Shown: positions 1 through 58,967, numbered from the stretch's first letter. The stretch is DNA of 64,000 bases from an uncultured Planctomycetales bacterium (GCA_964520655.1 CAZFNI010000002.1:64770-128769); one strand, 5' to 3'. Program-made: numbers and translations. Notes: generated from the letters alone by a model not told the origin.

Positions 1-252
1 ACGGACATTGAATTGAACGCGAGAATCTCCCTTAATGATCTCACCGCATTCATAAGGAGAATTCTTTAATTGGCTTGGTGCCTTGGGCCGCAGGAAAAAA
101 GAGACCGCAAAGGCAGAACCGACAAAGGCGATGCCAAGCAAAAAGAAAAAGACAATGGAAATGTAATCAGGTAAGACCATATTTTTTTAATGCTAACATA
201 ATCTAAAAAGCGCGTCTACTTCTAAATAAGCTATTTAGATGCGATTTTCTCA

Positions 253-672
253 TTAACGCTTAAATTCCGTCGCTAAGATCAAATGTTTGATCCCTGCTTT
301 TGAGGCGCTGTCAATGACCGTCACGACGAAATCATATTTGACCGCCCTGTCCCCGCTGATGATGATCGAGGGGTCGCTGTAGGTCTTGGCTAATTCCTGC
401 AGCTTAAAGACAAAAACATCCTTATCCAGACGCAAGTTATAGCGTTGATTCTCCAAATAAACATCCCCATTAGCGGTCACGGACACATTGATATCCTTGC
501 TCTCAACCGGGGTCTGGTTGGTCGAGACTTGCGGCAAGGCGATCTTGATGCTGGAGCGGTAGATCAGAGGGGTTGTGACCATGAAAATGATCAACAAAAC
601 CAAAATAACATCCGTGAACGGAGCGATATTGATCTCAGCGATCATCTTTTTTGTTCGGACGCGGCGTTTCAT
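253..672 (-). CDS. exbD: ExbD/TolR family biopolymer transport protein
   Basis: 139 aa; N-terminal single TM (IAPFTDVILVLLIIFMVTTP) typical of ExbD/TolR; immediately downstream of ExbB/TolQ-like gene. Confidence 0.8.
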   Translation of the reverse strand: MKRRVRTKKMIAEINIAPFTDVILVLLIIFMVTTPLIYRSSIKIALPQVSTNQTPVESKDINVSVTANGDVYLENQRYNLRLDKDVFVFKLQELAKTYSDPSIIISGDRAVKYDFVVTVIDSASKAGIKHLILATEFKR

Positions 673-677
673 GCGCT

Positions 678-1307
678 TTATTTCCTCTTAATGCACATTA
701 GATCCACCAGCTCGGAAGCGATCAATTCCATGTCCACCACGAAATTATCGACTTTGCGCATAAAATAGTTGTAGCAAACAACCGCAGGGATCGCCACGAC
801 CAACCCGGCCGCCGTGCAGATCAGGGATTCCGAGATACCCGTTGTCACCACATCCATCCCGCCGGAACCAGCTTTGGCTATATCGCCAAAAGCACGCATG
901 ATCCCAAGCACTGTCCCAAACAACCCGATGTAGACCGCTGTCCCGCCGATCGTCGCCACGATGCTGGTGAAGCGCTCCAGCTTGATCGTTTCCACCGTGA
1001 TCTCGCGTTCCATGGCATTGGAGATGACCTTTTCGTCGTGCCCCTGCAAATGCAGACCTGCCACAGCGACCTTGGCAGTGGGCGTATCAATATTGCGGCA
1101 GATCTCAATGGCATTATGGACTTGTCTTAGGTCATATTCCTTGCGGATCTGGTCCATCAGGTCAAAGCGGCTTACCCTGGAGCGGCGATAATAATAGATC
1201 ACGCGTTCAATGATGACCGCGATCGACACGACCGAACACAGGATCAAGACGAACATGGTGATCCCGCCGGAACCGATGATCTCGAAAATACTTTTGTTAG
1301 CGAACAT
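678..1307 (-). CDS. exbB: MotA/TolQ/ExbB proton-channel family protein
   Basis: 209 aa, 3 TM helices, conserved TolQ/ExbB C-terminal region (GLxGTVxGIMxAF); paired with exbD. Confidence 0.8.
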   Translation of the reverse strand: MFANKSIFEIIGSGGITMFVLILCSVVSIAVIIERVIYYYRRSRVSRFDLMDQIRKEYDLRQVHNAIEICRNIDTPTAKVAVAGLHLQGHDEKVISNAMEREITVETIKLERFTSIVATIGGTAVYIGLFGTVLGIMRAFGDIAKAGSGGMDVVTTGISESLICTAAGLVVAIPAVVCYNYFMRKVDNFVVDMELIASELVDLMCIKRK

Positions 1308-1380
1308 GCTCCCTCCTGTTCAATGCTCTAATAAATGAAGTCAGATTCTATCCGAAAGCAGCCGGACTGACAAACGTTTT

Positions 1381-1602
1381 TCAAAAAAGCCCACGGTATG
1401 GTTCCGACCCGCCGTTGATCGCTTTTAAAAAAGCTGGGAACTTGCGAGGCGGGATCGTCATCTCCGTGACCTTTTCATTAGTCACATCCTCAAAGATCAT
1501 CGTCATGCCGCGATGCCCCTGCTCATCATTGAAATGCTTTACATAAACGCTGTAATGCGCCCCCAGATAATCCCATTCTACCAGGTCTTGCAGTTTAGAC
1601 AT
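1381..1602 (-). CDS. hypothetical small protein (73 aa)
   Basis: ORF only; no recognisable motif. Confidence 0.3.
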   Translation of the reverse strand: MSKLQDLVEWDYLGAHYSVYVKHFNDEQGHRGMTMIFEDVTNEKVTEMTIPPRKFPAFLKAINGGSEPYRGLF

Positions 1603-1625
1603 AGCTTACCCTTTCAATAATAAAA

Positions 1626-2237
1626 TTATTCCGGTCTTTGTTTAATGATGAGCTCACTTAACCCCGCGTAGTTCGATCCGCCGAGCCGGGCTAGCGGATC
1701 AATGGCTTTGGGGTCTATGATCGTTTTACCGTTGTTCGTTTTAACCACGCTGTCATCGATCCAAATGGAATTGATCCGACCCAAGATCATCCCCTGCCGG
1801 TCTTTACCGATCTCCTCGATGCGGTATTTTTCACAGAAGAAAGCGACCTTTGGGCCTTTAAGTTTTGGCATCGGCTGGCCGTCCACCTTTTCAAGTGATA
1901 GCCCAAGCTGATCAACCTCGGAGACACCATGCGCCAAAGTGGCTGATGAGGCGACCATTGGCACTAAATGTTCAACTGATGGGATATGCACCACGAAGTG
2001 ATCTCGCGCGTCAATATTGACCCACGTATCCTTGCGCGTCTGCTCATCCTTCCATCCGACCGAGAGCATCAGGATCGCCGGGTCAGAGGACACCACATTA
2101 AAAAAAGAGAACGGCGCCAGATTAAAAGTCCCGTTGCCATTATTCGACAGCACCCAGGCAATGGGACGCGGGATGACCGTTTGGGTTAAGGTGTAATAAT
2201 TTTTGCTGGATGATTGTTGTAGACAATTTACTAACAT
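1626..2237 (-). CDS. flavin reductase-like FMN-binding domain protein
   Basis: PRPIAWVLSNNGNGTFNLAPFSFFNVVSSDPAILMLSV matches flavin-reductase/split-barrel signature; start moved to internal Met (MLVNCL) to avoid overlap with next gene. Confidence 0.7.
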   Translation of the reverse strand: MLVNCLQQSSSKNYYTLTQTVIPRPIAWVLSNNGNGTFNLAPFSFFNVVSSDPAILMLSVGWKDEQTRKDTWVNIDARDHFVVHIPSVEHLVPMVASSATLAHGVSEVDQLGLSLEKVDGQPMPKLKGPKVAFFCEKYRIEEIGKDRQGMILGRINSIWIDDSVVKTNNGKTIIDPKAIDPLARLGGSNYAGLSELIIKQRPE

Positions 2238-2884
2238 ACCGCCTGCCAAAACTCCTTCGTGTCCACATCCATGATCGTCAACTTTCTGCCGTGGCCGGCG
2301 CCGGTGTCCATGGCCCAGACATTGCAAAATTTCTGCGGGGTGTCTTTGCCAAATTTGATCGTCGGAGTGTGTCCGAGATAGATCTCATCAAAATAGCCGA
2401 TCTTCCAGTCTGGATTTGAGACGTTTAGTTCTTTGGCCTTCATGATCAATGTCCTGTCCCAAAGCAGCGTATCCTTTGATGTTTCCTCCAACGGATATTC
2501 CGGATTAAAACCACCGTGGACAAATAATCTATTACCCTCCATAAACCATAGGCTTGCTCTGGTTAGAAATTGGATATGCTCTTGAGGCATCCCGGTTGTT
2601 TGATACGATGCGACCGTCGCACTGCCGCCTTCGCTAAGCCACCCATCAGGCGCTTTGCCGCTTGTGGCCCATTCCAAACTCCACGCATCATGATTGCCTA
2701 AAATGTAAATGCATTTGGGGATCGTGATAAGTTCGTCGATGCATTCCCTCACCTGCGCCCCGCGGTCGCACACATCGCCTAAACAGATCAGCCTGTCTTG
2801 GGTTTTATCGAATTTAGAAAGCTCTAAACATTTTAATAATGCTTGATGGGCTCCATGGATATCAGCAATGACAAATGTACGCAT
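2231..2884 (-). CDS. metallophosphoesterase (PPP-family Ser/Thr phosphatase / ApaH-like)
   Basis: N-terminal DIHG, later GDxxDRG and GNHD motifs of calcineurin-like phosphoesterases. Confidence 0.75.
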   Translation of the reverse strand: MRTFVIADIHGAHQALLKCLELSKFDKTQDRLICLGDVCDRGAQVRECIDELITIPKCIYILGNHDAWSLEWATSGKAPDGWLSEGGSATVASYQTTGMPQEHIQFLTRASLWFMEGNRLFVHGGFNPEYPLEETSKDTLLWDRTLIMKAKELNVSNPDWKIGYFDEIYLGHTPTIKFGKDTPQKFCNVWAMDTGAGHGRKLTIMDVDTKEFWQAVC

Positions 2885-2891
2885 ATGTCCT

Positions 2892-3503
2892 TTATGGAAT
2901 TAGTTCTTTGAATGCCGCATGTTTATTGATCAACTTGATGGCCTGCCCGACCAAAGTCTTGCCCGGCTCTTTTCTGTGCCAGGGGCTTGCTCCTGATGGA
3001 TGAGCCAAGGGAATGACATCGAAATGATGACCGTCATAGATTGTTTTAAATTGCTTACCCACCACATGTTCAAGTTTTTCGAATTCTAGAAATTGTGATA
3101 TCGCTAGTTTCCCGACCGGGATCACGAGCGCCGGCTTTAGGATCGCCAGTTCTTTCTTAAACCAGGAAGAACAGTTCTTGACCTCATCGGGCGAGGGCGC
3201 TCGGTCGCCGCCTTTTGGATTCTTGCCCGGAAAACAACGGCAGACAGCAGCCATATAGATGGATGAACGAAAGCCAGCTTCCTCCAAACCCGTCCCCTCC
3301 TCAAACCACTTAAACAAGGTTTTGCCCGCGGTCCAGGCAAAGGGGCGTCCCAATTTAGGTTCTTTATCTCCCGGCGCTTGACCCACCAGGATCACGCGGC
3401 TGATAACAGGCCCGCCGCTGACTGGCGGGGCGTGCATTTCTTTACATTGGCGGCAAGCGCGTAATTGCTCGATGTGTTTGGCTAATTGCTTTGTTGTATC
3501 CAA
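2892..3503 (-). CDS. uracil-DNA glycosylase superfamily protein, family 4/5-like (Fe-S type)
   Basis: GQAPG (variant of GEGPG motif A), HPS motif B near C-terminus, Cys pairs (CRQC, CRC) consistent with Fe-S UDG. Confidence 0.75.
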   Translation of the reverse strand: MDTTKQLAKHIEQLRACRQCKEMHAPPVSGGPVISRVILVGQAPGDKEPKLGRPFAWTAGKTLFKWFEEGTGLEEAGFRSSIYMAAVCRCFPGKNPKGGDRAPSPDEVKNCSSWFKKELAILKPALVIPVGKLAISQFLEFEKLEHVVGKQFKTIYDGHHFDVIPLAHPSGASPWHRKEPGKTLVGQAIKLINKHAAFKELIP

Positions 3504-3515
3504 AATGACCTTGTC

Positions 3516-3863
3516 TTAAAGTTTATTGTATTTTGTATGTTTGCCTTTGGCTTTTTCGACCGGGTATTTCTTGGCGTTCTTGATCATTTTTTGTTCAATG
3601 GCTTTGGGAAGGTCGATCTGAAGGTTATCGGCCAGCTCAAACAGATATATCGCCACATCCGCCAATTCATCGGAAAGATCTTCCTTGTCCGTCTTTCCGT
3701 GCTCGATCACCTCTTGCGGGGATTTCCATTGGAAATGTTCTAACACCTCGGATGCCTCAAGCACTAAAGACAAAGCCACATCTTTATGATTATGGAACTG
3801 CCCCCAATCGCGTTCATCGCGGAATTTTCTGATCTTTTCGGTTATGGCTTTGATCTGTGACAT
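3516..3863 (-). CDS. MazG-like nucleotide pyrophosphohydrolase
   Basis: 115 aa; EASEVLEHFQW and ELADVAIYL motifs typical of MazG/dCTP pyrophosphatase family. Confidence 0.75.
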   Translation of the reverse strand: MSQIKAITEKIRKFRDERDWGQFHNHKDVALSLVLEASEVLEHFQWKSPQEVIEHGKTDKEDLSDELADVAIYLFELADNLQIDLPKAIEQKMIKNAKKYPVEKAKGKHTKYNKL

Positions 3864-4019
3864 GAGGCCCTCTTGATTTGATTTTTGGTTATGTTATCAC
3901 ACATAAACTCCTGATAAAAGTAAATACTCCGGCTTGAAATTAGCATAATTCAGCCTTGACTAACGGGGTCTATTTGTTAATCTCTTTATAGATATTAACA
4001 GCAGCAACTAGGAGATTTC

Positions 4020-5153
4020 ATGATCATTGCCATACCTAAAGAAACACTTCAGGGCGAATCCCGCGTGAGCTTTATCCCTTCTTCTGTAGATCGCCTGGTT
4101 AAAAAAGGCGCGCAGGTCATTGTGGAGAGCGGCTTAGGTTTAAGTGTCGGGTTTACTGACGACGATTACAGAAAAGCCGGTGCCACGGTGGAGGGCAACC
4201 GTCAACACCTCCTTTCCCAGGGCGATATTGTGCTGCGTTTGCGCAAACCGCCGATCGAAGAAGTCGGGCAACTCAAAAAAGGCTCTATTCATATCAGTTT
4301 CCTTGATCCATTCAATGAAAAAGACTTGGTCAATGCTTTAGCCACGAATAATATCACGGCTATTTCTGTGGAAATGATCCCACGCACCACCCGGGCTCAA
4401 AAAATGGACGCCTTAAGTTCTCAGGCGAACTTAGCTGGTTATGTGACGGTCATCTTAGCGGCAGAAAGATTACCCAAGATCTTCCCTATGCTCATGACCC
4501 CGGCAGGTACGATCTCCCCGGCCCGTGTGTTTATCATCGGTGCTGGTGTGGCTGGTCTTCAAGCCATTGCGACCGCCAAACGTTTGGGTGCGCGCGTTGA
4601 GGCTTTTGATACCCGCGCTGTTGTTAAGGAACAAGTTCAGTCGTTAGGCGCAAAGTTCATTGAGATCGATCTTGGGGAAACCGGACAAACCAAAGACGGC
4701 TACGCCAAAGCCTTAACACCGGAACAATTGGCCATTCAGCGTCAAGGCATGGCCAAGGTTTGCGCGCAGTCCGATGTGGTGATCACCACCGCCCAGTTGT
4801 TCGGCCGCAAAGCGCCTGTTGTTATCGGCAAAGATATGATCGCGCAAATGAAACCAGGCACGATCATTGTGGATATGGCCGTTGAATCCGGCGGCAACGT
4901 GGAAGGCTCCAAGGTCAATGAAGAAGTGGTCACGGAAAATGGCGTGCGCATTTTAGGGTTGGGTAATTTGCCTGGCCGCGTTGCTGTGCATGCCTCACAA
5001 ATGTATTCCGCCAACCTTCACAATTTATTAGAAGAATATTGGGATAAAGACGCCAAGAAATTCAATCTCAATTTAGAAGACGAGATCATCAAAGGCTGTG
5101 TTGTCACCCATGGCGGCAAGATCGTCAACGCCATGTTAACGAAAACGTCATAG
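4020..5153 (+). CDS. pntAA: NAD(P) transhydrogenase subunit alpha part 1 (AlaDH/PNT domain)
   Basis: 377 aa; Rossmann GAGVAGLQAI; split three-gene pnt arrangement. Confidence 0.9.
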   Translation: MIIAIPKETLQGESRVSFIPSSVDRLVKKGAQVIVESGLGLSVGFTDDDYRKAGATVEGNRQHLLSQGDIVLRLRKPPIEEVGQLKKGSIHISFLDPFNEKDLVNALATNNITAISVEMIPRTTRAQKMDALSSQANLAGYVTVILAAERLPKIFPMLMTPAGTISPARVFIIGAGVAGLQAIATAKRLGARVEAFDTRAVVKEQVQSLGAKFIEIDLGETGQTKDGYAKALTPEQLAIQRQGMAKVCAQSDVVITTAQLFGRKAPVVIGKDMIAQMKPGTIIVDMAVESGGNVEGSKVNEEVVTENGVRILGLGNLPGRVAVHASQMYSANLHNLLEEYWDKDAKKFNLNLEDEIIKGCVVTHGGKIVNAMLTKTS

Positions 5154-5161
5154 GAGCTATC

Positions 5162-5446
5162 ATGGAACTAGTTTATCTATTATTCATCCTCACCCTCTCG
5201 ATATTTCTAGGGTTCGCGTTGATCTCACGCGTTCCACCGCTGCTTCACACCCCGCTCATGTCGGAAGCCAATGCCATCTGCGGGATCATCATCATTGGGG
5301 CTTTAGTCACGGCGGGTGTACAAGCAACCGGTCCGCTCACGATCTTCTTGGGAGTTTCAGCGGTCGCTTTGGCAACCTTTAACGTGGTGGGCGGCTATTT
5401 AGTCACGGAACGCATGCTAAAAATGTTTAAAAAGAAGGAAAACTAA
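5162..5446 (+). CDS. pntAB: NAD(P) transhydrogenase subunit alpha part 2 (membrane)
   Basis: 94 aa, hydrophobic, located between pntAA and pntB. Confidence 0.85.
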   Translation: MELVYLLFILTLSIFLGFALISRVPPLLHTPLMSEANAICGIIIIGALVTAGVQATGPLTIFLGVSAVALATFNVVGGYLVTERMLKMFKKKEN

Positions 5447-8207: not shown

Positions 8208-9602
<1,395 letters not shown>

Positions 9603-33946: not shown

Positions 33947-34975
33947 TTAGGCTTTGTTGTAGTGGAACATGGCCTCTAATGTTTTCAAGGCTTTTAAACG
34001 AATGTCTTCGGAAAAATGAACCCGGTCTTTGGGCAATGGATTCTTCAAAACCCTTAAGATGTCTTCTAAGGTGTTGGATTTCATGTAACGGCACATGGTG
34101 CAGCTGCCGACCAGCTTCTTGTCGGGAAATTCCGACTGCAGACGGCCCGAGAGCCCGCATTCGGTCAGCATTAAGAATTCTTTGGATTTTGTTTCTCTCA
34201 TGTACCCTAACATCTGTTCCGTTGAGCCGACAAAGTCTGAATTATCAATGATATTGGCATTACATTCCGGGTGACTGACGATCTTGGCCTCTGGATGTTC
34301 CAGTCGGACTTTCAAGATCTGTTCCACGTCATATTCTTCATGAACGTAACAAGTACCACTGTAATAGCGGATGTCTTTTTTGATGCCTTTGCGGGCCATG
34401 AAATTCTTCAAATTCTCGCCCATGAATTTATCCGGCAAGAAATAGATCTTGTCATTCGGGAAACGCTCAACGACGGTGTACACATTCGCGGAGGTGACAC
34501 ACACATCGCATTCCGCTTTGACTTCCGCGGTCGTATTGACATAACAGACAAACGCATAACCGGGAAACTCTTTGCGCAACGCTCTAACCTGGTCGGCATT
34601 GATCGAATCGGCCAGCGAACATCCGTCCAACGGTGCAGGTATCAACACTTCTTTTTCCGGGTTAAGGATCTTGGCCGTCTCTCCCATAAAGCGCACGGCG
34701 GTAAACACGATCGTCGATGCCTTAGTTGTCATGGCATCCTTGCTTAACTTATAGGAATCCCCAACGAAATCCGCCACGCCGTAAATGATCTCGGGGGTTA
34801 TATAGGAATGCGCCAGGATAACCGCGTTCTTTTGGGCTTTAAGATCATTGATCTCATTGATCAAAGGCACCAATTCCTCGCATTTACGCAAAGAATATTG
34901 GCACACGGCGGCCCCAAGCTTAATATTCTTAAGCTTTTCGTACAACGCTTCGGCTGTGAGATGAGTCTTTAACAT
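33947..34975 (-). CDS. nadA: quinolinate synthase
   Basis: full-length NadA similarity (AHSY, VCYVNT, HPEC, conserved Cys for 4Fe-4S); start chosen at internal Met. Confidence 0.85.
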   Translation of the reverse strand: MLKTHLTAEALYEKLKNIKLGAAVCQYSLRKCEELVPLINEINDLKAQKNAVILAHSYITPEIIYGVADFVGDSYKLSKDAMTTKASTIVFTAVRFMGETAKILNPEKEVLIPAPLDGCSLADSINADQVRALRKEFPGYAFVCYVNTTAEVKAECDVCVTSANVYTVVERFPNDKIYFLPDKFMGENLKNFMARKGIKKDIRYYSGTCYVHEEYDVEQILKVRLEHPEAKIVSHPECNANIIDNSDFVGSTEQMLGYMRETKSKEFLMLTECGLSGRLQSEFPDKKLVGSCTMCRYMKSNTLEDILRVLKNPLPKDRVHFSEDIRLKALKTLEAMFHYNKA

Positions 34976-35032
34976 AGAATGGGTTATTTTACTGTATTCT
35001 GAAGGATTTTCAAGCATTACCATCAGATTGGC

Positions 35033-36421
35033 TTAACACTTCTCGCCCCTTAAAACATGGGGCGTGGCCTCAGTGATGCGGACTTTTAAAAGAGTGCCGA
35101 TAGGGTGTCCCTGGGTGGAAAGAACGACAAGCTTGCCTCCATCCGTTCTGCCGACACTATGCAGATGAGCCTTCTCGCCTGTGGCCGGCTCGATCAAGAT
35201 GGTCAACACTTGACCGATATGAGCTCTGTTCTTTTTAAGAGTGATCTCTTTTTGAATATCATTGAGCTGCATGATGCGCTCTGTTTTCTTTTCTTCGCTC
35301 ACATCATCGGGATATTTCTTGGAGGCAATGGTGCCTTTGCGCTCGGAATATTTGAACATGAACGCGGAATCGAATTCCACGGTCTTGATCACATCGATTG
35401 TATCCTTAAACTCTTCATCTGTTTCGGTCGGGAAACCAACGATCACGTCCGTTGACAGCACAAGTCCTGGGATGCGTTTGCGCATTTTATCGACCAAGGA
35501 CAAAAAATCCGACTTGGTGTAGGTGCGGCTCATCAGATCAAGGACACGGTCATTGCCCGCCTGTAAGGGCATGTGCACCTGTTTGCAGATCTTGGGATTA
35601 TTGGCCATCAGATCAATGAATTTATCCGGAAAATCTTTGGGGTGCGGTGAGGTAAAACGCACGCGTTCAATCCCCGAAACAAGGCTTACCACTTCCATCA
35701 GATCGGCGAAATCTTTATCCTCGTGGCGATAAGAATTTACGTTCTGACCAAGCAAAGTCACCTGCTTAAATCCCTCCGCCGCCAACTGCTTGACCTCTTC
35801 GACCACATTTTCAACAGAACGGCTGCGTTCCCGGCCACGGGTATAGGGCACAACGCAAAACGTGCAAAAATTATTGCACCCGCGCATGACCGCGATCCAG
35901 GCATTGATCCCTTCCTTGCGGCTAGGGGTTATGTCCGCATAGGTCTCGAATTCAGAAAGGGTGACATCAAATGGCTTCTCGCCAGAACCTGCAGCTTCAC
36001 TGATCAACTCCGGAAGACGTTTATAACTGTCCGGCCCCGCGATAAAATCCACGCGCATGCTGCGGTCTTCAAAGATCTCCTGACGCAGATTGGTCGCCAT
36101 GCACCCCAAGATCCCAATGAGCACAGGACGACCATTGCGTTCATGACGAATAGAATGCACCCGCCCATAGACCTTACGGTGCGCATTCTCACGGATGGCG
36201 CAGGTGTTAAGCATCACAATGTCGGCAACTTCTTCAGAAGAAACGAACTCATAATTGGCCTTGCGCAGGATAGAGCGCACCAGCTCCGAGTCGTATTCGT
36301 TCATCTGACATCCGTAGGTCTCCAATAGCACGCGCTTTCCTGCCGACGAGGCAGGGAGTTTCTGCTCTGGATTCCCGACGGTGTTGTCGTTTGTTGCGCT
36401 ATGTTCGACGTGTTGCTCCAT
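35033..36421 (-). CDS. miaB: tRNA-i6A37 methylthiotransferase
   Basis: ETYGCQMNEYDSE MTTase N-domain, radical-SAM CxxxCxxC, TRAM domain; N-terminal start ambiguous and overlapped by recombinase gene. Confidence 0.9.
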   Translation of the reverse strand: MEQHVEHSATNDNTVGNPEQKLPASSAGKRVLLETYGCQMNEYDSELVRSILRKANYEFVSSEEVADIVMLNTCAIRENAHRKVYGRVHSIRHERNGRPVLIGILGCMATNLRQEIFEDRSMRVDFIAGPDSYKRLPELISEAAGSGEKPFDVTLSEFETYADITPSRKEGINAWIAVMRGCNNFCTFCVVPYTRGRERSRSVENVVEEVKQLAAEGFKQVTLLGQNVNSYRHEDKDFADLMEVVSLVSGIERVRFTSPHPKDFPDKFIDLMANNPKICKQVHMPLQAGNDRVLDLMSRTYTKSDFLSLVDKMRKRIPGLVLSTDVIVGFPTETDEEFKDTIDVIKTVEFDSAFMFKYSERKGTIASKKYPDDVSEEKKTERIMQLNDIQKEITLKKNRAHIGQVLTILIEPATGEKAHLHSVGRTDGGKLVVLSTQGHPIGTLLKVRITEATPHVLRGEKC

Positions 36422-38001
36422 TTGATTCCTTCTTCGTAACATGTTTGCCACGGTTCATTTAATTCAAACGTGACAATCTCTTGATTTTGAATGTAAATCG
36501 ATTTAAAAATAATCCTCATAAACGTTTTTATGAGGAAATCCATCTGCTCACTATCCGGCGCTTTTCTTAAATGTAAAAGAAAATCCTGTGTTGCCCTTGT
36601 CAGATTGATCGAATTGCGTTTATCTAAAATCTTTAACTGTACACCTTTGATATCCTGCTTTAATTTCTTTTCTTCATTACGCAACAATTCCGCGCGATCT
36701 TTATAAATTTCAAGGTTGATGCTATCCTGCGCAAAGACTTCATACAAGCCTTTTTGTTTCTCGAGATTCTTGTTCAGTAATTTTGTTAATCCCTCCAACT
36801 CATCTAAAAAAATCTGCTCGGGCTGAGACGCATTGAGTTTGATCATGTCCCCGAATTCTTCTAGGACATGCAGGTTCTGGCATACCACATTAACGATGTC
36901 CCAAACCTGTTTGCCAATCGCATCCGCGGAAACGCTGGCATTGTCGCATTTCAAATATGAAACGCCTTTGGATGAACAGCGATACCACGGATGTTTAACC
37001 TTGGTGCGATGATTCGAAATAGACATAATACCACGAAAATTGCCATTGCACACTTTACATTTTAGCACACCCGAAAAATGATAGTTGTTGTTTTTAAACT
37101 TCACAACAGCATTCGTGCGATTACGTTTAAGTAAGACCGATGCTTCATCAAACTGCTTTTGAGTAATAATTGGTTCATGGACATTCGGCACCTCAACAAT
37201 TTTAGAAGGATCGTTGGCCACATATTTATAAGTTTTACCCTCTCCATCTTTTGTTTTAGCTCTTGGATCATAACGATGCCGGTTCCACACTAATGTACCC
37301 AAGTATACTTTACTTTTAAGAATCGTGCCGATGAATTTGGTGTAAAACTTACCGCCTTGGCGGGAAGATGTTCCAAGCCGATAAAAATGTCCGGCGATTT
37401 GCGAAGTGCTTTGGCCACTGATATAGCGATCATAAATTTCACGGACAATTTTTGCTTCTGGTTCATGTATTTCGAGCTTTTTAATGTCTTTGTTATAACG
37501 ATAACCATACGGTGCATAACGTGCCCCTTGCCAGTGACCTTTCTTAACACCCACCAGCATTCCCGGAAAAACACGTTCTACTAAACGGTTTCGTTCAAAC
37601 TCTGCGCAACTTCCCAACATTTGAATGGCCATCTTTCCGGCGCTGGATGTTGTGTCAAAAGGTTCGGTTGCGGATTTATAACCGACACCAAGAGAATCAA
37701 ATTCTTCCAAAAGTCCCAAGAGATCTTTTAAACGACGGCTTAAACGGTCTTGCTTATACACCATGACCAAATCAAACTGTTTATTACGCGCATCAAAAAG
37801 AAGCCTCTGCAAAGCAGGCCGATCCATATTCCCACCGGAATAGCCATCATCCATGTAGACGTCTCTGCCGGGAATACTGCAAAAAACCTCCCAGCCAAAG
37901 TTTTGCGCGTATTGCAACAAAAACGTGCGTTGCACCTCCAGCGAAAAACCTTCGCGGGCTTGATCCTCTGTGCTAACTCTTGTATATAGGGCGACTTTCA
38001 T
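36301..38001 (-). CDS. large serine recombinase (resolvase-N catalytic domain + recombinase domain + zinc ribbon + coiled coil)
   Basis: YTRVSTEDQ catalytic-Ser motif, recombinase domain, CKVCNG...C zinc ribbon; 566 aa. Confidence 0.9.
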   Translation of the reverse strand: MKVALYTRVSTEDQAREGFSLEVQRTFLLQYAQNFGWEVFCSIPGRDVYMDDGYSGGNMDRPALQRLLFDARNKQFDLVMVYKQDRLSRRLKDLLGLLEEFDSLGVGYKSATEPFDTTSSAGKMAIQMLGSCAEFERNRLVERVFPGMLVGVKKGHWQGARYAPYGYRYNKDIKKLEIHEPEAKIVREIYDRYISGQSTSQIAGHFYRLGTSSRQGGKFYTKFIGTILKSKVYLGTLVWNRHRYDPRAKTKDGEGKTYKYVANDPSKIVEVPNVHEPIITQKQFDEASVLLKRNRTNAVVKFKNNNYHFSGVLKCKVCNGNFRGIMSISNHRTKVKHPWYRCSSKGVSYLKCDNASVSADAIGKQVWDIVNVVCQNLHVLEEFGDMIKLNASQPEQIFLDELEGLTKLLNKNLEKQKGLYEVFAQDSINLEIYKDRAELLRNEEKKLKQDIKGVQLKILDKRNSINLTRATQDFLLHLRKAPDSEQMDFLIKTFMRIIFKSIYIQNQEIVTFELNEPWQTCYEEGIKWSNTSNIAQQTTTPSGIQSRNSLPRRQESACYWRPTDVR

Positions 38002-38039
38002 AATCTTATTTTGTCGGGAGTGTACCGTAGTTTCGCATC

Positions 38040-38255
38040 TTATTCAAAGGCTTCTTGGCCTTCTTTTGCTTTTAACTGTCTTGCCGAATGGGTTGATAAA
38101 AACATCTTGGTCAACGTTTCAATGCCATCATAAAACGACTTTCGCGCTTGCGCGATTTCGCCCGCAGAGAGTCCTTTGGCTTTTAGCTTTTCCTCCAAAG
38201 ATTCCCAGCCGCGGGGTTCTTTATGGCCTAAATTTGACGTTGTTTCCGTAATCAT
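38040..38255 (-). CDS. hypothetical small protein (71 aa) of the element
   Basis: ORF only. Confidence 0.3.
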   Translation of the reverse strand: MITETTSNLGHKEPRGWESLEEKLKAKGLSAGEIAQARKSFYDGIETLTKMFLSTHSARQLKAKEGQEAFE

Positions 38256-38281
38256 TTGACTTACCTAAAATAGGACATTCG

Positions 38282-38300
38282 GACATCGCCAATGTCCGGT
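38282..38300. promoter_or_regulatory. perfect 7-bp-stem inverted repeat CGGACAT-cgcca-ATGTCCG upstream of 71-aa ORF
   Basis: seen directly; flanked by additional GGACAT/GTCCGAC half-sites. Confidence 0.3.
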
Positions 38301-38426
38301 TTGTCCGACCCGATGTCGCACCGTAAAATTACGTTGTCGACGAGAAATTACCTTAACAGATCCTCTAACTCGTCCTTTACGACCACGACATGACATTTTT
38401 AAAATTTTGAATCACTGACCGTCCGC

Positions 38427-38472
38427 GCCTCGCCTGACCCGCACCCGGCACCCACCATGGAAGGACCCATTC
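38427..38472. repeat. GC-rich ~45-bp direct repeat copy A (CGCCTCGCCTGACCCGCACCCGGCACCC..GGAAGGACCCAT)
   Basis: second imperfect copy at 42811-42856. Confidence 0.7.
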
Positions 38473-38487
38473 TTTATTTGTGAACGT

Positions 38488-38774
38488 TGTGAGGCTAAAA
38501 TCCCCATCCTTACACCTTGCCTTTCCCACTCCTTTTTTACCCGTCGTGTGAGCTCTTTCTTTTATTTTTTATTACTTAAGAAAATTAGCCTCACACAGCT
38601 CACACTTTCACTTAACCAATTGTGTTTTAATCACTTAACCATGTGAGCAAGGCTGTGAGTTGAGCGTGAGCAAGAATTTCTACTCACACTTTAGAATGGC
38701 CTTTTCTCAAAAAGACTGTGAGTTGACTCATCTTCATCACCGTTGCTCACGCCCTGCTCACAGTCCACCTCACA
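38488..38774. repeat. iteron-like array: ~12 copies of TGTGAG / CTCACA in both orientations, with adjacent AT-rich stretch (38556-38590)
   Basis: motifs located at 38488, 38547, 38590, 38599, 38643, 38655, 38667, 38683, 38717, 38746, 38757, 38769; overlaps 3' end of Prim-Pol gene. Confidence 0.6.
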
Positions 38775-41054
38775 GGCCTTTTTGTCAATTTTACGCAAAA
38801 CAAAAAGACGCCTTCCTGTCCCGGCCTCCCGTTTGGGTAACCGGATGACATCAATCCCTGTGCTACGCATGACCGGAGCAATTCTCATTAATTCACTCGA
38901 TAACCAGCGGGGTGTATTGGGGATTGTTTTATCTTTTGTTCCTTCCGGGGTGATTATGGCCAATAACTCCGCCGCTGACCCTGACCATTCTCCATTATTG
39001 GTCATGACCAAAGTTGTTAACCGTCTGACCAAGGGGCTCTCCTCCGCCGTATTTTCCCATTTATGGTCAACCGACTCTTTGTAATTACTCAAAAATTCCT
39101 GACGAGAAAATCCAAGTTCATCCGCAAGTGCCATGCCCCACCGCACATAGTCAGCCATTCGGAATTTTTCATGACCAGTGACACTGTTCACATGATTCAT
39201 GGCTTTTGAAATAGCCGTAAAGAATCCACCGAGAATTCCCGGCAGAGCATTTTTCCATTCCTCGTTAATCTGCCCCTCGGAACGTCCATCTTTTAAAATC
39301 GGAATATCGAAGAGGATGGAACGATCCAGTAAATCCGGCCGCCACATCAAGCTGCCGATGCCATTGATGACAAAACAGCGGCGATAGGACCGGATAAATT
39401 CATCATCATTGGTATAAAGGCTGCGTTTCATGTCGCCCTCGCCGGTAACACCACGGCAGAGAAAATCGCTGAACCACTCAATAATTTTGGAAAGATTATC
39501 GAACGCACTCACCCAATGTTTGTCCGCTGTCATTTGTGCTTGTTCGAGGTCCTTGGGCGATGAGATTAACTCAACTTTGGAAGGATCAACCAGCCTTTTG
39601 ATCGCGCGGCTGTTGTAGGATTTCCCACTTCCCTGTTCACCGTTTTGGCTGACGATCACATGAGGAATATTGGGAATAAAATAGGTGGCCGTAGTCACAA
39701 TAAAAAGACATTGGTCATCCTCGTTGAGATTACAAAACCGGAGAATGTCTTTCGGATCGCCACCTAATACCGGCATGACTTGTTCATTTTGGTGACTATA
39801 ACGACGGAAAATAGGCGGCAGATAAATGATCTCCCATCCGTTTGGCGTAATGCGTACACCTCGCCAATCTGGAGTCGTTAAGTCGAAATAAATCGCTCCA
39901 CCGTAATGACCCACACGGTTAAAAAGCTCGATTTGCCGTGAGTCTTCACATTTGGCTTCCAACTGAATGATGGCCTGATTAATGGATTCGCTATTGGGCG
40001 GGGTTTTGTGTCTGGCGCGATAGCCTTTCGCTATCCAGTTGCGGAATCTTGTACTTTTGGTCTGACAAACTTCCGAATGCTTATCAATCGGCAAGACCAC
40101 ATAGAAGCTTCCTTGCTGGTCGCGAAAAGTATCTTTGATGATCTCTTCGCATTCTTTTGTGATGATTTCGCCTTGAGAAACTTTTTGTTTGGTTGGAGTA
40201 AAAACTTCATCGCAACCGCTGACTGCCTCATCGATTACGCCCTGACCGTAGGTCCGGCCATCGGCATAATGTTTTGTGTCCCATTTTTCCCTGAATAATT
40301 TGGATTGCCGGAAGATGGAATCCATGAGCGCCGGGTTTCGCCCCGTCCAAAATGCTAATTTGCCGCATAATGCTAGATCCGCTTCGCTTTGTGAACTGTA
40401 ATGACCTTCCCACTCTCCGCTAAAAAGCTGATTAAACTTATCGGCGTCTTTACTTTGAGCAATAGCTTCTAAGATTTCTTCAACACTTCGAGGCTTTTTC
40501 TTTTGTTTTTTGGTCTTTGGTTTGGAGGAGTTTTCTTCGATTAATTTGTTTAAACCCTCGCTTTGCTCTTCGATAACCGCAGGGTATTCTTCCAATCGAT
40601 TCCCTGTAAACGTAAAAAATCGACCATTGGTATAAATTTCTATTTTGGATTTTTTGATAGCGCGGCTGATTTCTCCTTTACAGATTACATGTACGCCCGT
40701 GCCGCTAGGTGAGAGTTCCGAATATGAACCAAGCCGTTTGAGGATTTCAATAGTATGAGATGCGATAATGCCATTCTTAACACAATTATCTAAATCAACG
40801 CCGACATACGGCGGTTGAAATACAAGCCCAATGGCATCGTAATTGCGCTGAATGGATAAATCTAAGGCATTCTCAAAATCAGTCCATGTGGAAGGGTCGT
40901 TGGACTTGGCACATTCGCCGGTTAAGGCGTTCATGGGGATTTTATCGGTCTTGCCTGGCCGGTCTTTACTGGGAACAATCTTGCACCCGACCCAATTGGG
41001 GAGTTTCTTTAATTCATCGGGCACATTGTTAATCAATTTCTGATAATCGATCAT
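38691..41054 (-). CDS. replication protein: bifunctional DNA primase/polymerase (Prim-Pol) N-domain + PriCT_1-like domain + C-terminal P-loop NTPase (SF3/D5-like)
   Basis: Prim-Pol N-terminus, LALCGKLAFWTGRNPALMDSIFRQSKLFREKWD (PriCT-like), Walker A GEQGSGKSY. Confidence 0.8.
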   Translation of the reverse strand: MIDYQKLINNVPDELKKLPNWVGCKIVPSKDRPGKTDKIPMNALTGECAKSNDPSTWTDFENALDLSIQRNYDAIGLVFQPPYVGVDLDNCVKNGIIASHTIEILKRLGSYSELSPSGTGVHVICKGEISRAIKKSKIEIYTNGRFFTFTGNRLEEYPAVIEEQSEGLNKLIEENSSKPKTKKQKKKPRSVEEILEAIAQSKDADKFNQLFSGEWEGHYSSQSEADLALCGKLAFWTGRNPALMDSIFRQSKLFREKWDTKHYADGRTYGQGVIDEAVSGCDEVFTPTKQKVSQGEIITKECEEIIKDTFRDQQGSFYVVLPIDKHSEVCQTKSTRFRNWIAKGYRARHKTPPNSESINQAIIQLEAKCEDSRQIELFNRVGHYGGAIYFDLTTPDWRGVRITPNGWEIIYLPPIFRRYSHQNEQVMPVLGGDPKDILRFCNLNEDDQCLFIVTTATYFIPNIPHVIVSQNGEQGSGKSYNSRAIKRLVDPSKVELISSPKDLEQAQMTADKHWVSAFDNLSKIIEWFSDFLCRGVTGEGDMKRSLYTNDDEFIRSYRRCFVINGIGSLMWRPDLLDRSILFDIPILKDGRSEGQINEEWKNALPGILGGFFTAISKAMNHVNSVTGHEKFRMADYVRWGMALADELGFSRQEFLSNYKESVDHKWENTAEESPLVRRLTTLVMTNNGEWSGSAAELLAIITPEGTKDKTIPNTPRWLSSELMRIAPVMRSTGIDVIRLPKREAGTGRRLFVLRKIDKKACEVDCEQGVSNGDEDESTHSLFEKRPF

Positions 41055-41349
41055 GAGTTGTTCCTTCCATCTTCTTGACGTTCTCAATCAATTTTTCATA
41101 GTAACTGTTGACTTGATTTTCAATCTCATCAGCGACCGGTTTATGAATCGGTTTAAAACAATGAACTCTTAGTCCCGTGACTAAATACCTCACTGGATAA
41201 ACCAGTCTGTATCCGGGCTGATCGATGCGCGTGTAGATGGCCACATCGCCGACAAAGAACGAATCATTAAGGACAAATGAAGCAAACGCCACCAATCCCT
41301 TATTGGGTCTCACCGGCACGATTTGAATTTCTGTTAACTTGATCGTCAT
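41029..41349 (-). CDS. SpoVG-like nucleic-acid-binding protein
   Basis: IQIVPVRPNKGLVAFASFVLNDSFFVGDVAIY...PGYRLVYPVR aligns with SpoVG core. Confidence 0.55.
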   Translation of the reverse strand: MTIKLTEIQIVPVRPNKGLVAFASFVLNDSFFVGDVAIYTRIDQPGYRLVYPVRYLVTGLRVHCFKPIHKPVADEIENQVNSYYEKLIENVKKMEGTTHDRLSEID

Positions 41350-41504
41350 CAATTTTTCCTCTCTATAAAATAAAAAATCCCGTGCAATAAGTTTCATTAC
41401 ACAGGATAGCAAAACCAAAAATTTATGGTATTTACTGCAACAGGCTGGAATTATACCGATTTCAGTCTACTGAATGCCTTTTAGAAAAAGACGTTTCAGT
41501 ATAG

Positions 41505-42563
41505 TCAACCCTTCTTTCTGGGCTTTGATGGAGGTTTTTTAACTTTCATCTCCTTAAGATATTTCCTCCATACTGCCATGTCTTGCCGTTTTTTGTGCTT
41601 CACCTTCTCTTGATATCGTTGATAGTACGTTTTGTTTCGTGCGCTCTTACCGCAGTCTTTCCCTTCACTTAATAATGAGCAGTATTTCTTCTTCTCATCA
41701 AAAACAAAAGCATTACCGCAAGACGCGCATCTTGAAATAATCTTTTTGTGATACAAATCATCAAGCATGTCATTGAGAAATGAAAAGCAGAATCTCGCCA
41801 GAGGATCTTGTGACTCTGCCACGCTTTCGACAAAGGCGTAGAGCCCTTTGAGATATTGCTTGTCGATATCTCCACCATTAACAGCCCAATTACTTATCTG
41901 ACCCACCGCATCTAATAAACGGAAAAATTCTTTCTTGCTGATTCCGGCATATCCAAGCTCAAAACAGAGGGTGTCATAAAAATGACTAAACCACGCGTGA
42001 ATATCCTCTTTTAAAAAATGCACGCTTAAACCGAAATAGGAAGCCGCAAATGGATAAATACATGCGTGCTTTGCTTCGAATATGTGACCAGTCTTAGGCT
42101 CAACCTCGATGGCTGGAGCAATGGCCAGATCCACCAAAATCACATTCTGCTTTTTACTCAAATGTTGCTTTAGATAATCACTTTCAACAAGACCAAAATC
42201 TTTCAACTCGACCGTGATAGGTGAAGGTCGTTTCTGTCCATGGGCCAACAAAGACTCCATTGCTTGAAAGTCCCCTTTTGTTCTGCCTAAAATCTTCCCA
42301 AACCGGTACTCCTCCGGAGAAATAGCAACGCCTGTAATATCAAAAAATGGATTCACCAAAGCCAATAAGTAAAGATCATAATAAAATTCCGAGGATTTTT
42401 CGGAAGGACCAGTAACGCTATAAGGGAAACTTAATATCTGCCCGCGCACATGGTAATCTTTATATTTCGATGGACAGAAAACTTCTATGGGCTTGGGAAA
42501 TTTTCTAGCGTACGGATATTTATCAAGCGGCGCCTTAGGGTGGTAGATATAACTCTTCGTCAA
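41505..42563 (-). CDS. hypothetical protein (352 aa) with C-terminal Cys4 zinc-ribbon and basic tail
   Basis: CASCGN...C...C then K/R-rich tail; no family recognised. Confidence 0.5.
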   Translation of the reverse strand: MTKSYIYHPKAPLDKYPYARKFPKPIEVFCPSKYKDYHVRGQILSFPYSVTGPSEKSSEFYYDLYLLALVNPFFDITGVAISPEEYRFGKILGRTKGDFQAMESLLAHGQKRPSPITVELKDFGLVESDYLKQHLSKKQNVILVDLAIAPAIEVEPKTGHIFEAKHACIYPFAASYFGLSVHFLKEDIHAWFSHFYDTLCFELGYAGISKKEFFRLLDAVGQISNWAVNGGDIDKQYLKGLYAFVESVAESQDPLARFCFSFLNDMLDDLYHKKIISRCASCGNAFVFDEKKKYCSLLSEGKDCGKSARNKTYYQRYQEKVKHKKRQDMAVWRKYLKEMKVKKPPSKPRKKG

Positions 42564-42810
42564 ATTCTCCTCACTTTTTCAAACTTAAACACCTTCAAAT
42601 CATATCAAAAAAGTATCGATTATTCCAACTTCATACCAAATGTCATTTGTAACATAGGCATGTTACACTTTTTGACGATCAACAGGATAAGGCTCAACTA
42701 CGAAATTTGTTATTCCCGACGAGGCTTGGCTTTCGAAGATTAAAGGAAGCGTTTGATCTGCCTTTAGTAACGTAACATTCAAAAAAATACTTTTTTGCGA
42801 ACGGGCTGCC

Positions 42811-42856
42811 TTCGCCTCGCCCGACCCGCACCCGGCACCCCCCTCGGAAGGACCCA
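42811..42856. repeat. GC-rich ~45-bp direct repeat copy B
   Basis: TCGCCTCGCCCGACCCGCACCCGGCACCCCCCTCGGAAGGACCCAT; about 40/46 identical to copy A. Confidence 0.7.
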
Positions 42857-42957
42857 TCAAAAAGCTGCATAGCTGAGCACATCAACCCTGCCAGACCACC
42901 CCCAATCAGCTCATGGGAACGGTTACAATGATGGGAAGCACTAATTTGGGGGAATCA

Positions 42958-43151: not shown

Positions 43152-43802
43152 CTATTGTATCTTTCCATCCACGAGACTGACGAACCGGGAACCCAGAACA
43201 ACCCCTTCACTTTGATTGTGAGTGACATATAAAAGAATGGGCAAAAACTCCTGATGAAGCTTGAGAATTTCTTCCATCAAGCCGGACTTTAAATCCTCGT
43301 CAAGATGCGACAGCGGCTCATCCATCAAGAGAATCTTTGGCCTTGTCACAAGCGCGCGGGCAATGGCCACGCGCTGTTGTTCGCCGCCGGAGATTTCTCC
43401 CGGCAAGCTGTCCCGGTGCTTGGACAGCCTGATCTTTTCAAGCATGGCCTCTGTCCGCTCGCGAACTTCCTGGGAAACCAGCTTCCTGGCCTTGAGTCCA
43501 AAGGCGATATTTTCATAACAACTCATATGAGGCCAGAGCGCCAGGTCTTGAAATACCATTCCAATCCGCCTATGCTCGGGTTCCAAGAAACATTTTCCGT
43601 TTTGGGCCGCTTGGGCGCCTTCGATTTCCACCGTACCTTGATCCGGCTGAATGAAACCGGCGATGATCCTGAGCAATGTCGATTTGCCCGATCCCGAGGA
43701 GCCATAAATGACAATGCGTTCCCCTTGCTCTGCCGTCAGGGATAAATCTGTCAAAATCATTTTTCCATTGAAGGATTTGTAAATACGATCCAGTTTCAAA
43801 GA
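43152..43802 (-). CDS. ABC transporter ATP-binding protein (ferric/FbpC-like, NBD only)
   Basis: Walker A GSSGSGKST, LSGGEQQR signature, Walker B LLMDEP; N-terminal extension of the long ORF overlaps the permease gene and is rejected. Confidence 0.85.
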   Translation of the reverse strand, partial: SLKLDRIYKSFNGKMILTDLSLTAEQGERIVIYGSSGSGKSTLLRIIAGFIQPDQGTVEIEGAQAAQNGKCFLEPEHRRIGMVFQDLALWPHMSCYENIAFGLKARKLVSQEVRERTEAMLEKIRLSKHRDSLPGEISGGEQQRVAIARALVTRPKILLMDEPLSHLDEDLKSGLMEEILKLHQEFLPILLYVTHNQSEGVVLGSRFVSLVDGKIQ

Positions 43803-57923: not shown

Positions 57924-58967
57924 TTAACTTGTATATTTGAACATCGCCTCTACTGTTTTTAATGCTTTAATACGAATAGACTCCTCAACGGTAATTATGT
58001 CTTGTCGCTCTGGTTTCCTTAATACTCTTAAAATATCCGTTAGAGTATTGGATTTCATATACTCGCACAAAGCGCAGGAACCAACGATTTTCTTGCTCGG
58101 ATACTCTGATTCAATCCGAGAAGCTAACCCGCATTCGGTGAGCATCAAAAACTCTTCTGCTGTTGATTCGCGCATATAGGTCAGCATTTGTGAGGTACTG
58201 CCGACAAAATCTGAAGACCGGCAGACGGAAAGAGAACACTCGGGATGGCTGAGAATTTTTGCCTCTGGATATTCCGTTCTAACTTTAAAGACCATTTCCG
58301 GATTGAAGTTTTCGTGGACATGACAACAGCCGTTGAAAAATTGAATATCTTTTCTAACACCTCTTTTGTTCATTTCTTCACGTAAATTTTCTCCCATATA
58401 TCGATCCGGAAGAAAATAAATCCTGTTATTGGGAATATTGGCAATTACCTCGTAAACATTGGCAGAAGTAACACACACATCACATTCTGCCTTGACGGAA
58501 GCCGAAGTGTTAACGTAACAAACAAAAGTGTAACCTTGGAATTCTTTTCGTAAGGTCCGTATCTGATCCACCGTAATCGAGTCGGCCAGACTGCAACCAC
58601 CTGATTTAGCCGGTAGAAGCACTTCTTTGCCAGGATTAAGAATTTTAGCTGTCTCTCCCATAAAACGGACAGCTGTAAAGACAATAATAGAAGCCTTGGT
58701 CTCCACAGCTTTCCGGCTTAAAAACAGCGAATCACCAGTAAAATCACTGACGCCATAAATAATTTCAGGACTGACATAAGAATGTGCCAGAATGACGGCG
58801 TTCTTCTCCTTTTTTAACCGATTGATTTCATTGATCAACACAACCAGTTCTTCGCACTTCTTCAAAGAGTACTGACAGACCGTCCCGCCTATTTTTATAT
58901 TCTTCAGCCGTTGGTACAGTTGTTCCGCAGTTATTTCAAGTGAAAGAGAAATCGTCATATTCTTCAT
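57924..58967 (-). CDS. nadA: quinolinate synthase paralog (second nadA copy)
   Basis: ~70-75% aa identity over full length to the nadA at 33947-34975. Confidence 0.8.
   Translation of the reverse strand: MKNMTISLSLEITAEQLYQRLKNIKIGGTVCQYSLKKCEELVVLINEINRLKKEKNAVILAHSYVSPEIIYGVSDFTGDSLFLSRKAVETKASIIVFTAVRFMGETAKILNPGKEVLLPAKSGGCSLADSITVDQIRTLRKEFQGYTFVCYVNTSASVKAECDVCVTSANVYEVIANIPNNRIYFLPDRYMGENLREEMNKRGVRKDIQFFNGCCHVHENFNPEMVFKVRTEYPEAKILSHPECSLSVCRSSDFVGSTSQMLTYMRESTAEEFLMLTECGLASRIESEYPSKKIVGSCALCEYMKSNTLTDILRVLRKPERQDIITVEESIRIKALKTVEAMFKYTS

Follow-up and report, generated by a model that had tools for sequence, protein, structure and literature searches.

Islands and prophages associated with dusA use a single integration site, near the beginning of this tRNA-modification gene, and put sequence of their own in place of its 5' end; the short list of other tRNA-modification genes known to be targeted comprises mnmE, rimO and rluA but not miaB (PMC4482086, Farrugia et al. 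2015). In the stretch of 64,000 nucleotides (nt) analyzed here, from an uncultured Planctomycetales bacterium (GCA_964520655.1, CAZFNI010000002.1:64770-128769; "the window", in which positions are counted from the first letter), the 5' end of miaB is occupied by what is very probably an inserted element that replicates itself and is mobilized, in a site-specific manner, by a large serine recombinase (LSR). The element extends from 36,310 to ~42,900 on the minus strand (~6.55-6.65 kb). Like the dusA islands, it replaces the 5' end of a tRNA-modification gene with sequence of its own, and both components of gene-restoring island logic, a conserved gene invaded at its 5' end and a replacement start brought by the element, were found. 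The dusA islands, however, are proteobacterial and enter dusA by means of tyrosine integrases, whereas the window element combines an LSR, miaB and a gene start that overlaps the recombinase open reading frame (ORF); its integrase, a serine recombinase, is not a DAI-family tyrosine integrase. No paper in the searched literature linked miaB to a serine recombinase or to the attachment (att) site of a mobile element.

The cassettes of SCCmec and other staphylococcal cassette chromosome (SCC) elements are likewise moved by LSRs, and the best NCBIfam matches of the window LSR were CcrB (186 bits) and CcrC (151 bits), both far short of the cut-off of 900. SCC elements target rlmH (orfX), an RNA-modification gene whose end is occupied without inactivation of the gene, and they are known to form composite arrays. 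They differ from the window element in using the 3' end of rlmH and a CCPol/Cch primase, rather than the 5' end of miaB, a single LSR and a primase-polymerase (PrimPol) fusion of the AEP (archaeo-eukaryotic primase) type, and in their hosts, which for elements of the window type are Omnitrophota-like and other uncultured bacteria. Primase and helicase genes of their own are carried by SCC cassettes as well (PMC7581432). Among phage enzymes, the integrases of TP901-1, A118 and SPbeta (SprA) have the same three-domain structure, and TP901-1 provided the best PDB match (catalytic domain, E 9.7e-30). Phage large serine integrases are known to integrate into protein-coding genes. Homologs of the window LSR in cultured phages and plasmids are at most 33% identical to it, and the window element, in contrast to the phages, is devoid of phage genes and has its target gene repaired instead of disrupted.

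Two further systems bear on individual parts of the element. PriRep5 of SaPI5 (PDB 7ola) is a primase-initiator fusion with an iteron origin immediately downstream of its gene (PMC9371898). The window element resembles it in having, on an integrated island, a primase joined to a P-loop initiator, at a similar size (797 aa), and a candidate iteron origin; the sequence similarity is limited to the primase domain (aa 21-301), and the window element has no packaging genes. In SSV-type archaeal integrases, the att site lies inside the int gene and integration alters the encoded protein (PMC7253208). There the tyrosine recombinase gene is split and inactivated, whereas in the window just the extreme C-terminal tail of the LSR is exchanged and the gene stays whole.

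The junction within miaB and its substitute start

The locus was compared with 160 related loci, and a scan for MiaB with one genome per species returned relatives of the Omnitrophota type. In two LSR clades, each distributed across different hosts, nucleotide identity is ~1.00 up to ACCTTCGGATG, and synonymous sites vary from the base right after it. Because clade identity ends at this point and variation starts at the next base, the crossover is located in or next to the GGATG of the MiaB motif T-Y-G-C-Q-M-N (Table 1). All sequence upstream of GGATG, including the codons for ...K(R/L)R(V/I)LL(R/E)T(F/Y)G, belongs to the element. The sequence LLRTFG is carried by the elements of one clade even where the relatives of their hosts have LETYG.

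Since the crossover maps to GGATG, the insertion is inside miaB, and the first ~10 codons of the gene are replaced by a leader of 37 codons. The preliminary description of the locus, made from the window alone, had placed the element beside the 5' end of miaB; it named the proper gene end, but the insertion is actually within the gene, at about native codon 10, and replaces its start. The leader reads MEQHVEH...GKRVLLETYG and overlaps the 3' end of the LSR gene in another frame. Its ATG (36421) lies within the Lys-Trp codons of a conserved LSR motif, CYEEG(I/L/M)KW, and the preceding GAAGGA, which resembles a ribosome-binding site, corresponds to the Glu-Glu-Gly codons of the same motif. In an alignment with the closest empty site (locus L002, 74% MiaB identity), divergence sets in upstream of KRV(L/F)LETY. 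The N-terminal leader of MiaB comprises 29-36 codons at occupied loci versus 8-15 at empty ones, and it co-varies with the LSR clade and not with the host. Because the substitute start overlaps the LSR reading frame, miaB remains an intact ORF; its product in the window is 79% identical to that of the occupied locus L001.

The LSR gene in turn terminates in the host gene. As the preliminary description had recognized, its stop codon is inside the N-terminal coding region of miaB, where the TGA (36303-36301) is formed within the codons CAG ATG AAC. The last two LSR codons and this stop lie beyond the crossover and are host-derived; host encoding of the last two residues (V/A, R/K) explains why the protein ends in DVR, DAK, DAR or DVK in different hosts. 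The arrangement is a compact answer to the cost of insertion in an important gene, with a start dual-coded with the LSR tail and a stop borrowed from the host. For annotation, it follows that the miaB N-termini in such genomes are chimeric, and that the overlap of recombinase and miaB is real and not a gene-calling error.

The recombinase and the family of elements at miaB

The LSR contains a resolvase-type catalytic domain (Pfam Resolvase, 2.5e-33, aa 3-156) with the nucleophilic serine, Ser10, in the sequence YTRVSTEDQ, a Recombinase domain (PF07508, 2e-17) and a zinc ribbon (Zn_ribbon_recom, PF13408, 6e-09), and it matched the PHROG integrase at 1.8e-110. In 61 of 67 loci it is preceded by a homolog of orf71, the small gene upstream of the LSR in the window. 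The 27 homologs of orf71 that were found are without a Pfam family, and the window protein matched no family in Pfam, PHROGs, NCBIfam or PADLOC. It was modeled by AlphaFold2 (AF2) as a two-helix hairpin (predicted local distance difference test, pLDDT, 80), for which a structural search gave no match. Its identification as a known excisionase was rejected, as its only match, to DUF1233, was non-significant (E 0.17) and no structural neighbor was found.

Empty sites are present among the relatives: in L002, L004, L006, L009, L012, L018 and L045 there is no recombinase upstream of miaB, and MiaB at such sites starts 8-15 codons before GCQMN (in L002, with MKRVFLETYGCQMN). The empty sites anticipated in the preliminary description were thus encountered (in L002, L004, L018 and others), while other genomes carry related LSRs at the same position. 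In L001, an LSR of 82% identity and an orf71 homolog occupy exactly the same position, whereas the genes behind them differ and encode the specificity and restriction subunits of a type I restriction-modification (R-M) system and a TIR-like PDC-S35 protein (22-5383). In L007 just the last 123 LSR residues (aa 444-566) and the surrogate leader remain before an intact miaB, which indicates that the chimeric miaB is retained after decay of the recombinase.

Searched with the LSR, metagenomes yielded at least 80 loci, with identities of 50-89%. At least 48 loci have the TGA of CAG-ATG-AAC (MiaB GCQMN) as the LSR stop, at a constant 13 nt beyond the Gly codon. The host MiaB proteins encoded downstream of related LSRs form at least 27 clusters at 70% identity, and some are as low as 34% identical to the MiaB of the window. 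At a number of loci (L084, L085, L093, L098, L104, L111, L114, L139 and L140) the host MiaB ORF behind the element is only ~357-386 aa long, too short for a TRAM domain, and these short proteins are at most 40% identical to the window MiaB. Host contigs reach 800 kb (L112), 676 kb (L139) and 381 kb (L084). The miaB-targeting, gene-restoring LSR elements constitute a large and widespread family in uncultured bacteria, apparently undescribed in the searched literature, which spans no fewer than 80 loci from metagenomes and 27 or more lineages of host MiaB. The integration site, GCQMN, ranks with the best-conserved short stretches of bacterial coding sequence, and a natural serine integrase with so nearly universal a landing site and with sequence-defined att arms would be of practical interest for genome engineering.

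The genes carried behind the LSR vary within the family. In the 33 loci with enough upstream sequence, a primase was detected in 20, a SpoVG-like protein in 5 and orf352 in 1. The closest element (L081; LSR 89%, primase 81% and SpoVG 89% identical) bears on its left side (65-1286) an oligonucleotide cyclase and a 2TM effector of a CBASS defence system, and the window copy is a backbone without accessory cargo. The 71-aa, SpoVG-like and 352-aa genes, which had been taken for cargo in the preliminary description, are better viewed as backbone, in view of the linkage of orf71 to the LSR and of the replication module described below; true cargo (CBASS, type I R-M) is present only in the relatives. 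The genes upstream of miaB are not conserved among the relatives. The proposal that the element interrupts a miaB-nadA-metX operon was likewise abandoned, since it sits upstream of that row, where neighbors are not conserved.

Eleven loci contain an LSR that is not followed by miaB. There the LSR ORF runs on for 20-44 codons, and ten of these eleven extensions conform to the pattern W-x(2-3)-[YW]-x(3-4)-[LM]-x2-[FL]-L, as in DEWVDAYRTTLLFLKELF, GRWQNYSNAMASLAEAVVG and DRWTQYYTTLLEFL. On contig Ga0302252_1000381 (L135 and L090), two different miaB-type elements are arranged head to tail before a single miaB: the tail of the first LSR is joined to the left end of the second, a 17.5-kb element that terminates in miaB. 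A further LSR with a non-miaB junction (L105, 7275-8070) is followed by a 221-aa membrane-protein ORF and then by a short MiaB-like start (MKTRRSAFISTFG) joined to further island genes, which encode a metallophosphoesterase and HipBA; this stretch may represent an array member that is of miniature size or has decayed. As the relatives carry CBASS, R-M and abortive infection or toxin-antitoxin (Abi/TA) genes and stack in tandem, miaB emerges as a hotspot for defence islands in Omnitrophota-like and other uncultured bacteria.

By the standard behavior of LSRs, the enzyme would bring together an att site in the 3'-terminal part of the LSR gene and the stretch encoding the invariant MiaB sequence T-(Y/F)-G-C-Q-M-N, and the two sites would be exchanged within GGATG. 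Comparison with the relatives shows that the host's own miaB start is cut off, that the element supplies in its place a ribosome-binding site and an ATG followed by codons up to ...KRVLLETYG (37 in all), and that the LSR ORF now ends two codons into host DNA, at the TGA in CAG-ATG-AAC. After excision, to judge from the anatomy of the element and the analogy with SaPI5 PriRep5, the circle would be copied by the fusion of primase-polymerase and ATPase, with replication starting at the TGTGAG iterons and AT-rich patch at the end of the primase gene.

Location of the att site inside the LSR gene would generate two forms of the enzyme. In the free circle, the right end would be joined to an element-type left end (P') and the LSR ORF extended by 20-44 codons; in miaB, the extended tail would give way to two residues and a stop codon that the host provides. 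Such a tail swap might, together with orf71, bias the direction of the reaction. That it constitutes a built-in switch signaling the integrated state is a speculative and rather unlikely proposition; we know of no integration-sensing tail switch in serine integrases. On this view, regeneration of the target would also account for the tandem stacking of defence islands at miaB.

The replication module and conserved non-coding DNA

The largest gene of the element encodes a primase-polymerase fused to a P-loop ATPase. Matches to the PHROG DNA primase (1.8e-85, aa 20-318), to the Pfam NrS-1 HBD family (PF22763, 1.4e-27) and, over aa 21-302, to PDB 7ola and NrS-1 primases establish an AEP core with a helix-bundle domain of the NrS-1 type; the AEP motifs DLD and SGTGVH are present, as is a Walker A sequence, GEQGSGKS, at aa 483. 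The N-terminus is 40-42% identical to primases of temperate Staphylococcus and Listeria phages, and the C-terminus ~30% identical to "ATP-binding" proteins of small plasmids. The compact element with LSR and Prim-Pol module proposed in the preliminary description was thus upheld: its ORFs were all located at the positions given, and the recombinase and Prim-Pol calls were supported by matches in Pfam, PHROGs and the PDB. Among the individual families it had anticipated, Resolvase, Recombinase, Zn_ribbon_recom and a primase were recovered, whereas PriCT and D5_N were not found.

Two smaller genes precede the primase. The SpoVG-like protein covers the full 82-position model of PF04026 at a score just under the cut-off (E 1.3e-06, 28.9 versus 29.6 bits) and matched NCBIfam at 2.4e-04. 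For orf352, the first gene of the module, no family was found in Pfam, PHROGs, NCBIfam or PADLOC, and only 10 homologs occur among 5.8 billion proteins; assignment of a function by structure was given up, as the AF2 model was too poor to search (pLDDT 53). In most cases the homolog comes directly behind a tRNA-Met gene that lies downstream of eno-divIC, and the genes after it encode SpoVG, the same primase, an excisionase of the HTH_17 type and, lastly, a tyrosine integrase. Loci of this kind (L162, 9718-15810; L163, L164 and L165) have the orf352-SpoVG-PrimPol row beside tRNA-Met(CAT), with the tyrosine integrase and HTH_17 excisionase in place of the LSR, and carry AbiE, RadC and type I R-M genes as cargo. 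As orf352, SpoVG and PrimPol are common to the tRNA-Met elements and the LSR part is common to the miaB family, the window element is a mosaic of two modules. The integration module consists of a 45-nt motif, orf71, the LSR and the surrogate miaB start, a set common to the large miaB family.

An array of short repeats overlaps the 3' end of the primase gene: half of the window's TGTGAG/CTCACA hexamers (10 of 20) fall within 38,488-38,774 (~290 bp). A hexamer cluster is found at the primase 3' end in 16 of the 24 loci with a full-length homolog, with 6-14 copies per 500 nt compared with a background of <1-2. By analogy, the array has the layout of a candidate origin of the SaPI type.

The array is adjoined by one of two copies of the GC-rich 45-nt motif, ATGGGTCCTTCC..GG.GGGTGCCGGGTGCGGGTC.GGCGAGGCG, of which none would be expected in the window by chance. 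The motif recurs in ~49 related loci, without exception upstream of orf71-LSR and on the coding strand, and is conserved there at 80-94%, even where its flanks are only ~65% identical; it is also present in the tyrosine-integrase element L162, downstream of PrimPol. An RNA was rejected (no Rfam hit; folding no better than that of shuffled sequences, z -0.2 to +1.1), and indels and missing start codons in relatives speak against a peptide. The motif is read as a candidate protein-binding DNA site. Its second copy forms part of a conserved non-coding region upstream of orf352.

Alternative explanations and the surroundings of the element

Several points weigh against the reading of the locus as a mobile, self-replicating element. 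No same-species empty site was found; searches for proteins identical to the LSR, MetX or the ABC ATPase gave nothing. Near-identical pieces do occur in the read sets SRR16481186 and SRR22387945. A free form was likewise missing: 18 candidate contigs showed no terminal overlaps, no circular or attP form of the window element or of related elements was found, and the non-miaB junctions are at least partly tandem arrays. The C-terminal half of the primase had no Pfam or PDB match, and its putative helicase activity rests on the Walker A sequence and the plasmid homologs. By their positions, orf352 and the SpoVG-like protein are putative nucleic-acid-binding regulators of the replication module, and orf71 is the best candidate for a recombination directionality (excision) factor or regulator. 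The compositional contrast anticipated in the preliminary description was not seen: the GC content of the element region is 0.431 versus 0.458 in the rest of the window, and its tetranucleotide distance is within 1 sd of that of other windows, so that composition was dropped as a sign of foreign origin. Finally, neither an attL nor a displaced native miaB start was recognizable at the left end.

The left end has been examined in several ways. Because homology to L081 begins at 42857 and the receiver fragment ends at 42955, the left boundary lies within 98 nt. A six-frame search, which covered both the window and 10 kb upstream of related LSRs, revealed no remnant of another GCQMN or T(Y/F)G, and comparison of the two element ends gave no convincing inverted repeats. 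Twelve element-type left arms (P') were aligned to the left end and discarded (best p ~0.03-0.04 before correction for the 12 queries). Among the native miaB starts of 12 empty-site relatives, one matched there (L004, at 42796-42783); this match rests on a run of AAAAAAGTATTTTT, was not reproduced by the other queries and was also set aside.

These results bear most directly on the explanation that the window copy is a stranded fossil, which arrived as described but lost its left att site (and perhaps its left cargo arm), no longer excises and is inherited vertically, with the surrogate start under selection. As the left att site was not recognized, the window copy may indeed no longer excise. 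The relatives usually have several kb of cargo to the left of the conserved non-coding region, where the window has only ~100 nt of unique sequence; L007 demonstrates that such decay occurs, and the truncated receiver gene next to the element points to local deletions. On the other hand, the LSR, orf71 and PrimPol ORFs are all intact, and LSR half-sites are short and degenerate, hence easily missed without a same-species empty site. In the tyrosine-integrase relatives, moreover, orf352 is also the first gene, at ~200-300 bp from the junction, and a short left arm would therefore be normal for the replication module. A fossil is a plausible explanation that on balance we doubt.

An origin as a phage satellite of the PICI (phage-inducible chromosomal island) or SaPI type, induced and packaged by a helper phage, is considerably less probable. 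The combination of an integrase, a primase-Rep fusion and an iteron origin directly after the rep gene is that of SaPI replication (PMC9371898), and a Pri-Rep protein with such an origin directly downstream is indeed present. The primase similarity to temperate phages of Staphylococcus and Listeria points in the same direction, as does the occurrence of two relatives in IMG/VR, but these are just 2 of ~106 relatives to appear in a viral collection. The integrase is of the serine and not the tyrosine type, no master repressor was recognizable, and no terminase small subunit, capsid-remodeling (capsid-redirection) or packaging gene was found. None of the five ORFs had a structural or packaging hit in PHROGs, which agrees with the earlier statement that phage structural genes are lacking, and none matched a relaxase or type IV secretion system (T4SS) in Pfam, NCBIfam or PHROGs. 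Finally, ordinary, vertically inherited chromosomal genes that overlap miaB by chance would suit a composition like that of the flanks, but can be dismissed as extremely improbable given the empty sites in relatives, the same junction and sharp element-to-host switch of identity in at least 27 host MiaB clusters, the variable cargo and the tandem copies.

The positions of the features in and around the integrated element are given in Table 1. Every gene in 32.8-47.4 kb of the window is on the minus strand, in the order iron-type ABC transporter, receiver fragment, orf352, SpoVG-like gene, primase-polymerase fusion, orf71, LSR, miaB, nadA and metX, with ~390 nt of non-coding DNA between the receiver fragment and orf352 and a 435-nt spacer between the primase gene and orf71.

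Table 1. Positions of features at the miaB locus of the window
Feature	Position	Strand	Remarks
Host-encoded miaB body	35033-36309	-	Pfam UPF0004, radical SAM and TRAM domains
Sequence at the candidate attB, ACCTACGGATGTCAGATGAA			In miaB
Right junction (attR crossover zone), GGATG	36309-36313	-	Inside Gly-Cys codons of MiaB motif
Surrogate 5' end of miaB	36310-36421	-	Shine-Dalgarno-like GAAGGA; ATG at 36421; 37 codons
LSR, 566 aa	36301-38001	-	Pfam and PHROG matches
orf71, 71 aa	38040-38255	-	Conserved small LSR partner
45-nt motif, copy a	38426-38470	-	GC-rich, then AT-rich stretch; adjoins iteron array
Iteron-like array, candidate origin	38483-38778		Ten TGTGAG/CTCACA hexamers in both orientations; AT-rich core
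Primase-polymerase (AEP) fused to P-loop ATPase	38691-41087, likely start 41054	-	Putative replication initiator and helicase
SpoVG-like protein	41029-41418, likely start 41349 (106 aa)	-	Overlaps primase start by 26 nt
orf352, 352 aa	41505-42563	-	C-terminal Cys4 cluster, basic tail
Promoter-like site	42646-42619	-	Score 10/12; just downstream of conserved non-coding region
Conserved non-coding region	42646-42860	-	85% identical to L081 4740-4928
45-nt motif, copy b	42813-42857	-	In conserved non-coding region
Left-end zone	42858-42955		Between start of L081 homology and receiver stop
Receiver-domain C-terminal fragment, 55 aa	42955-43122	-	Neighbor outside element
Iron-type ABC transporter	ATPase end at 43152	-

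The receiver fragment, which matches positions ~70-120 of FixJ- and CheY-type receiver domains, begins only 30 nt from the stop of the ABC ATPase. Its N-terminal half is absent, on the side that faces away from the element. The truncation is an event separate from the insertion, and the fragment, at which the element had initially been thought to end, is a mere neighbor. A larger island that includes the 43-64 kb upstream was ruled out, as ordinary transport and metabolic genes are located there. Elsewhere in the window, ARAGORN reported a 92-nt tRNA-Pro(GGG) at 8630-8721, inside a 464-aa ORF (8208-9602); this tRNA is unusually long and probably a false positive. The window contains two quinolinate synthase (NadA) genes, one at 33947-35023 and another at 57924-58967, the latter adjoining an anaerobic ribonucleotide reductase.

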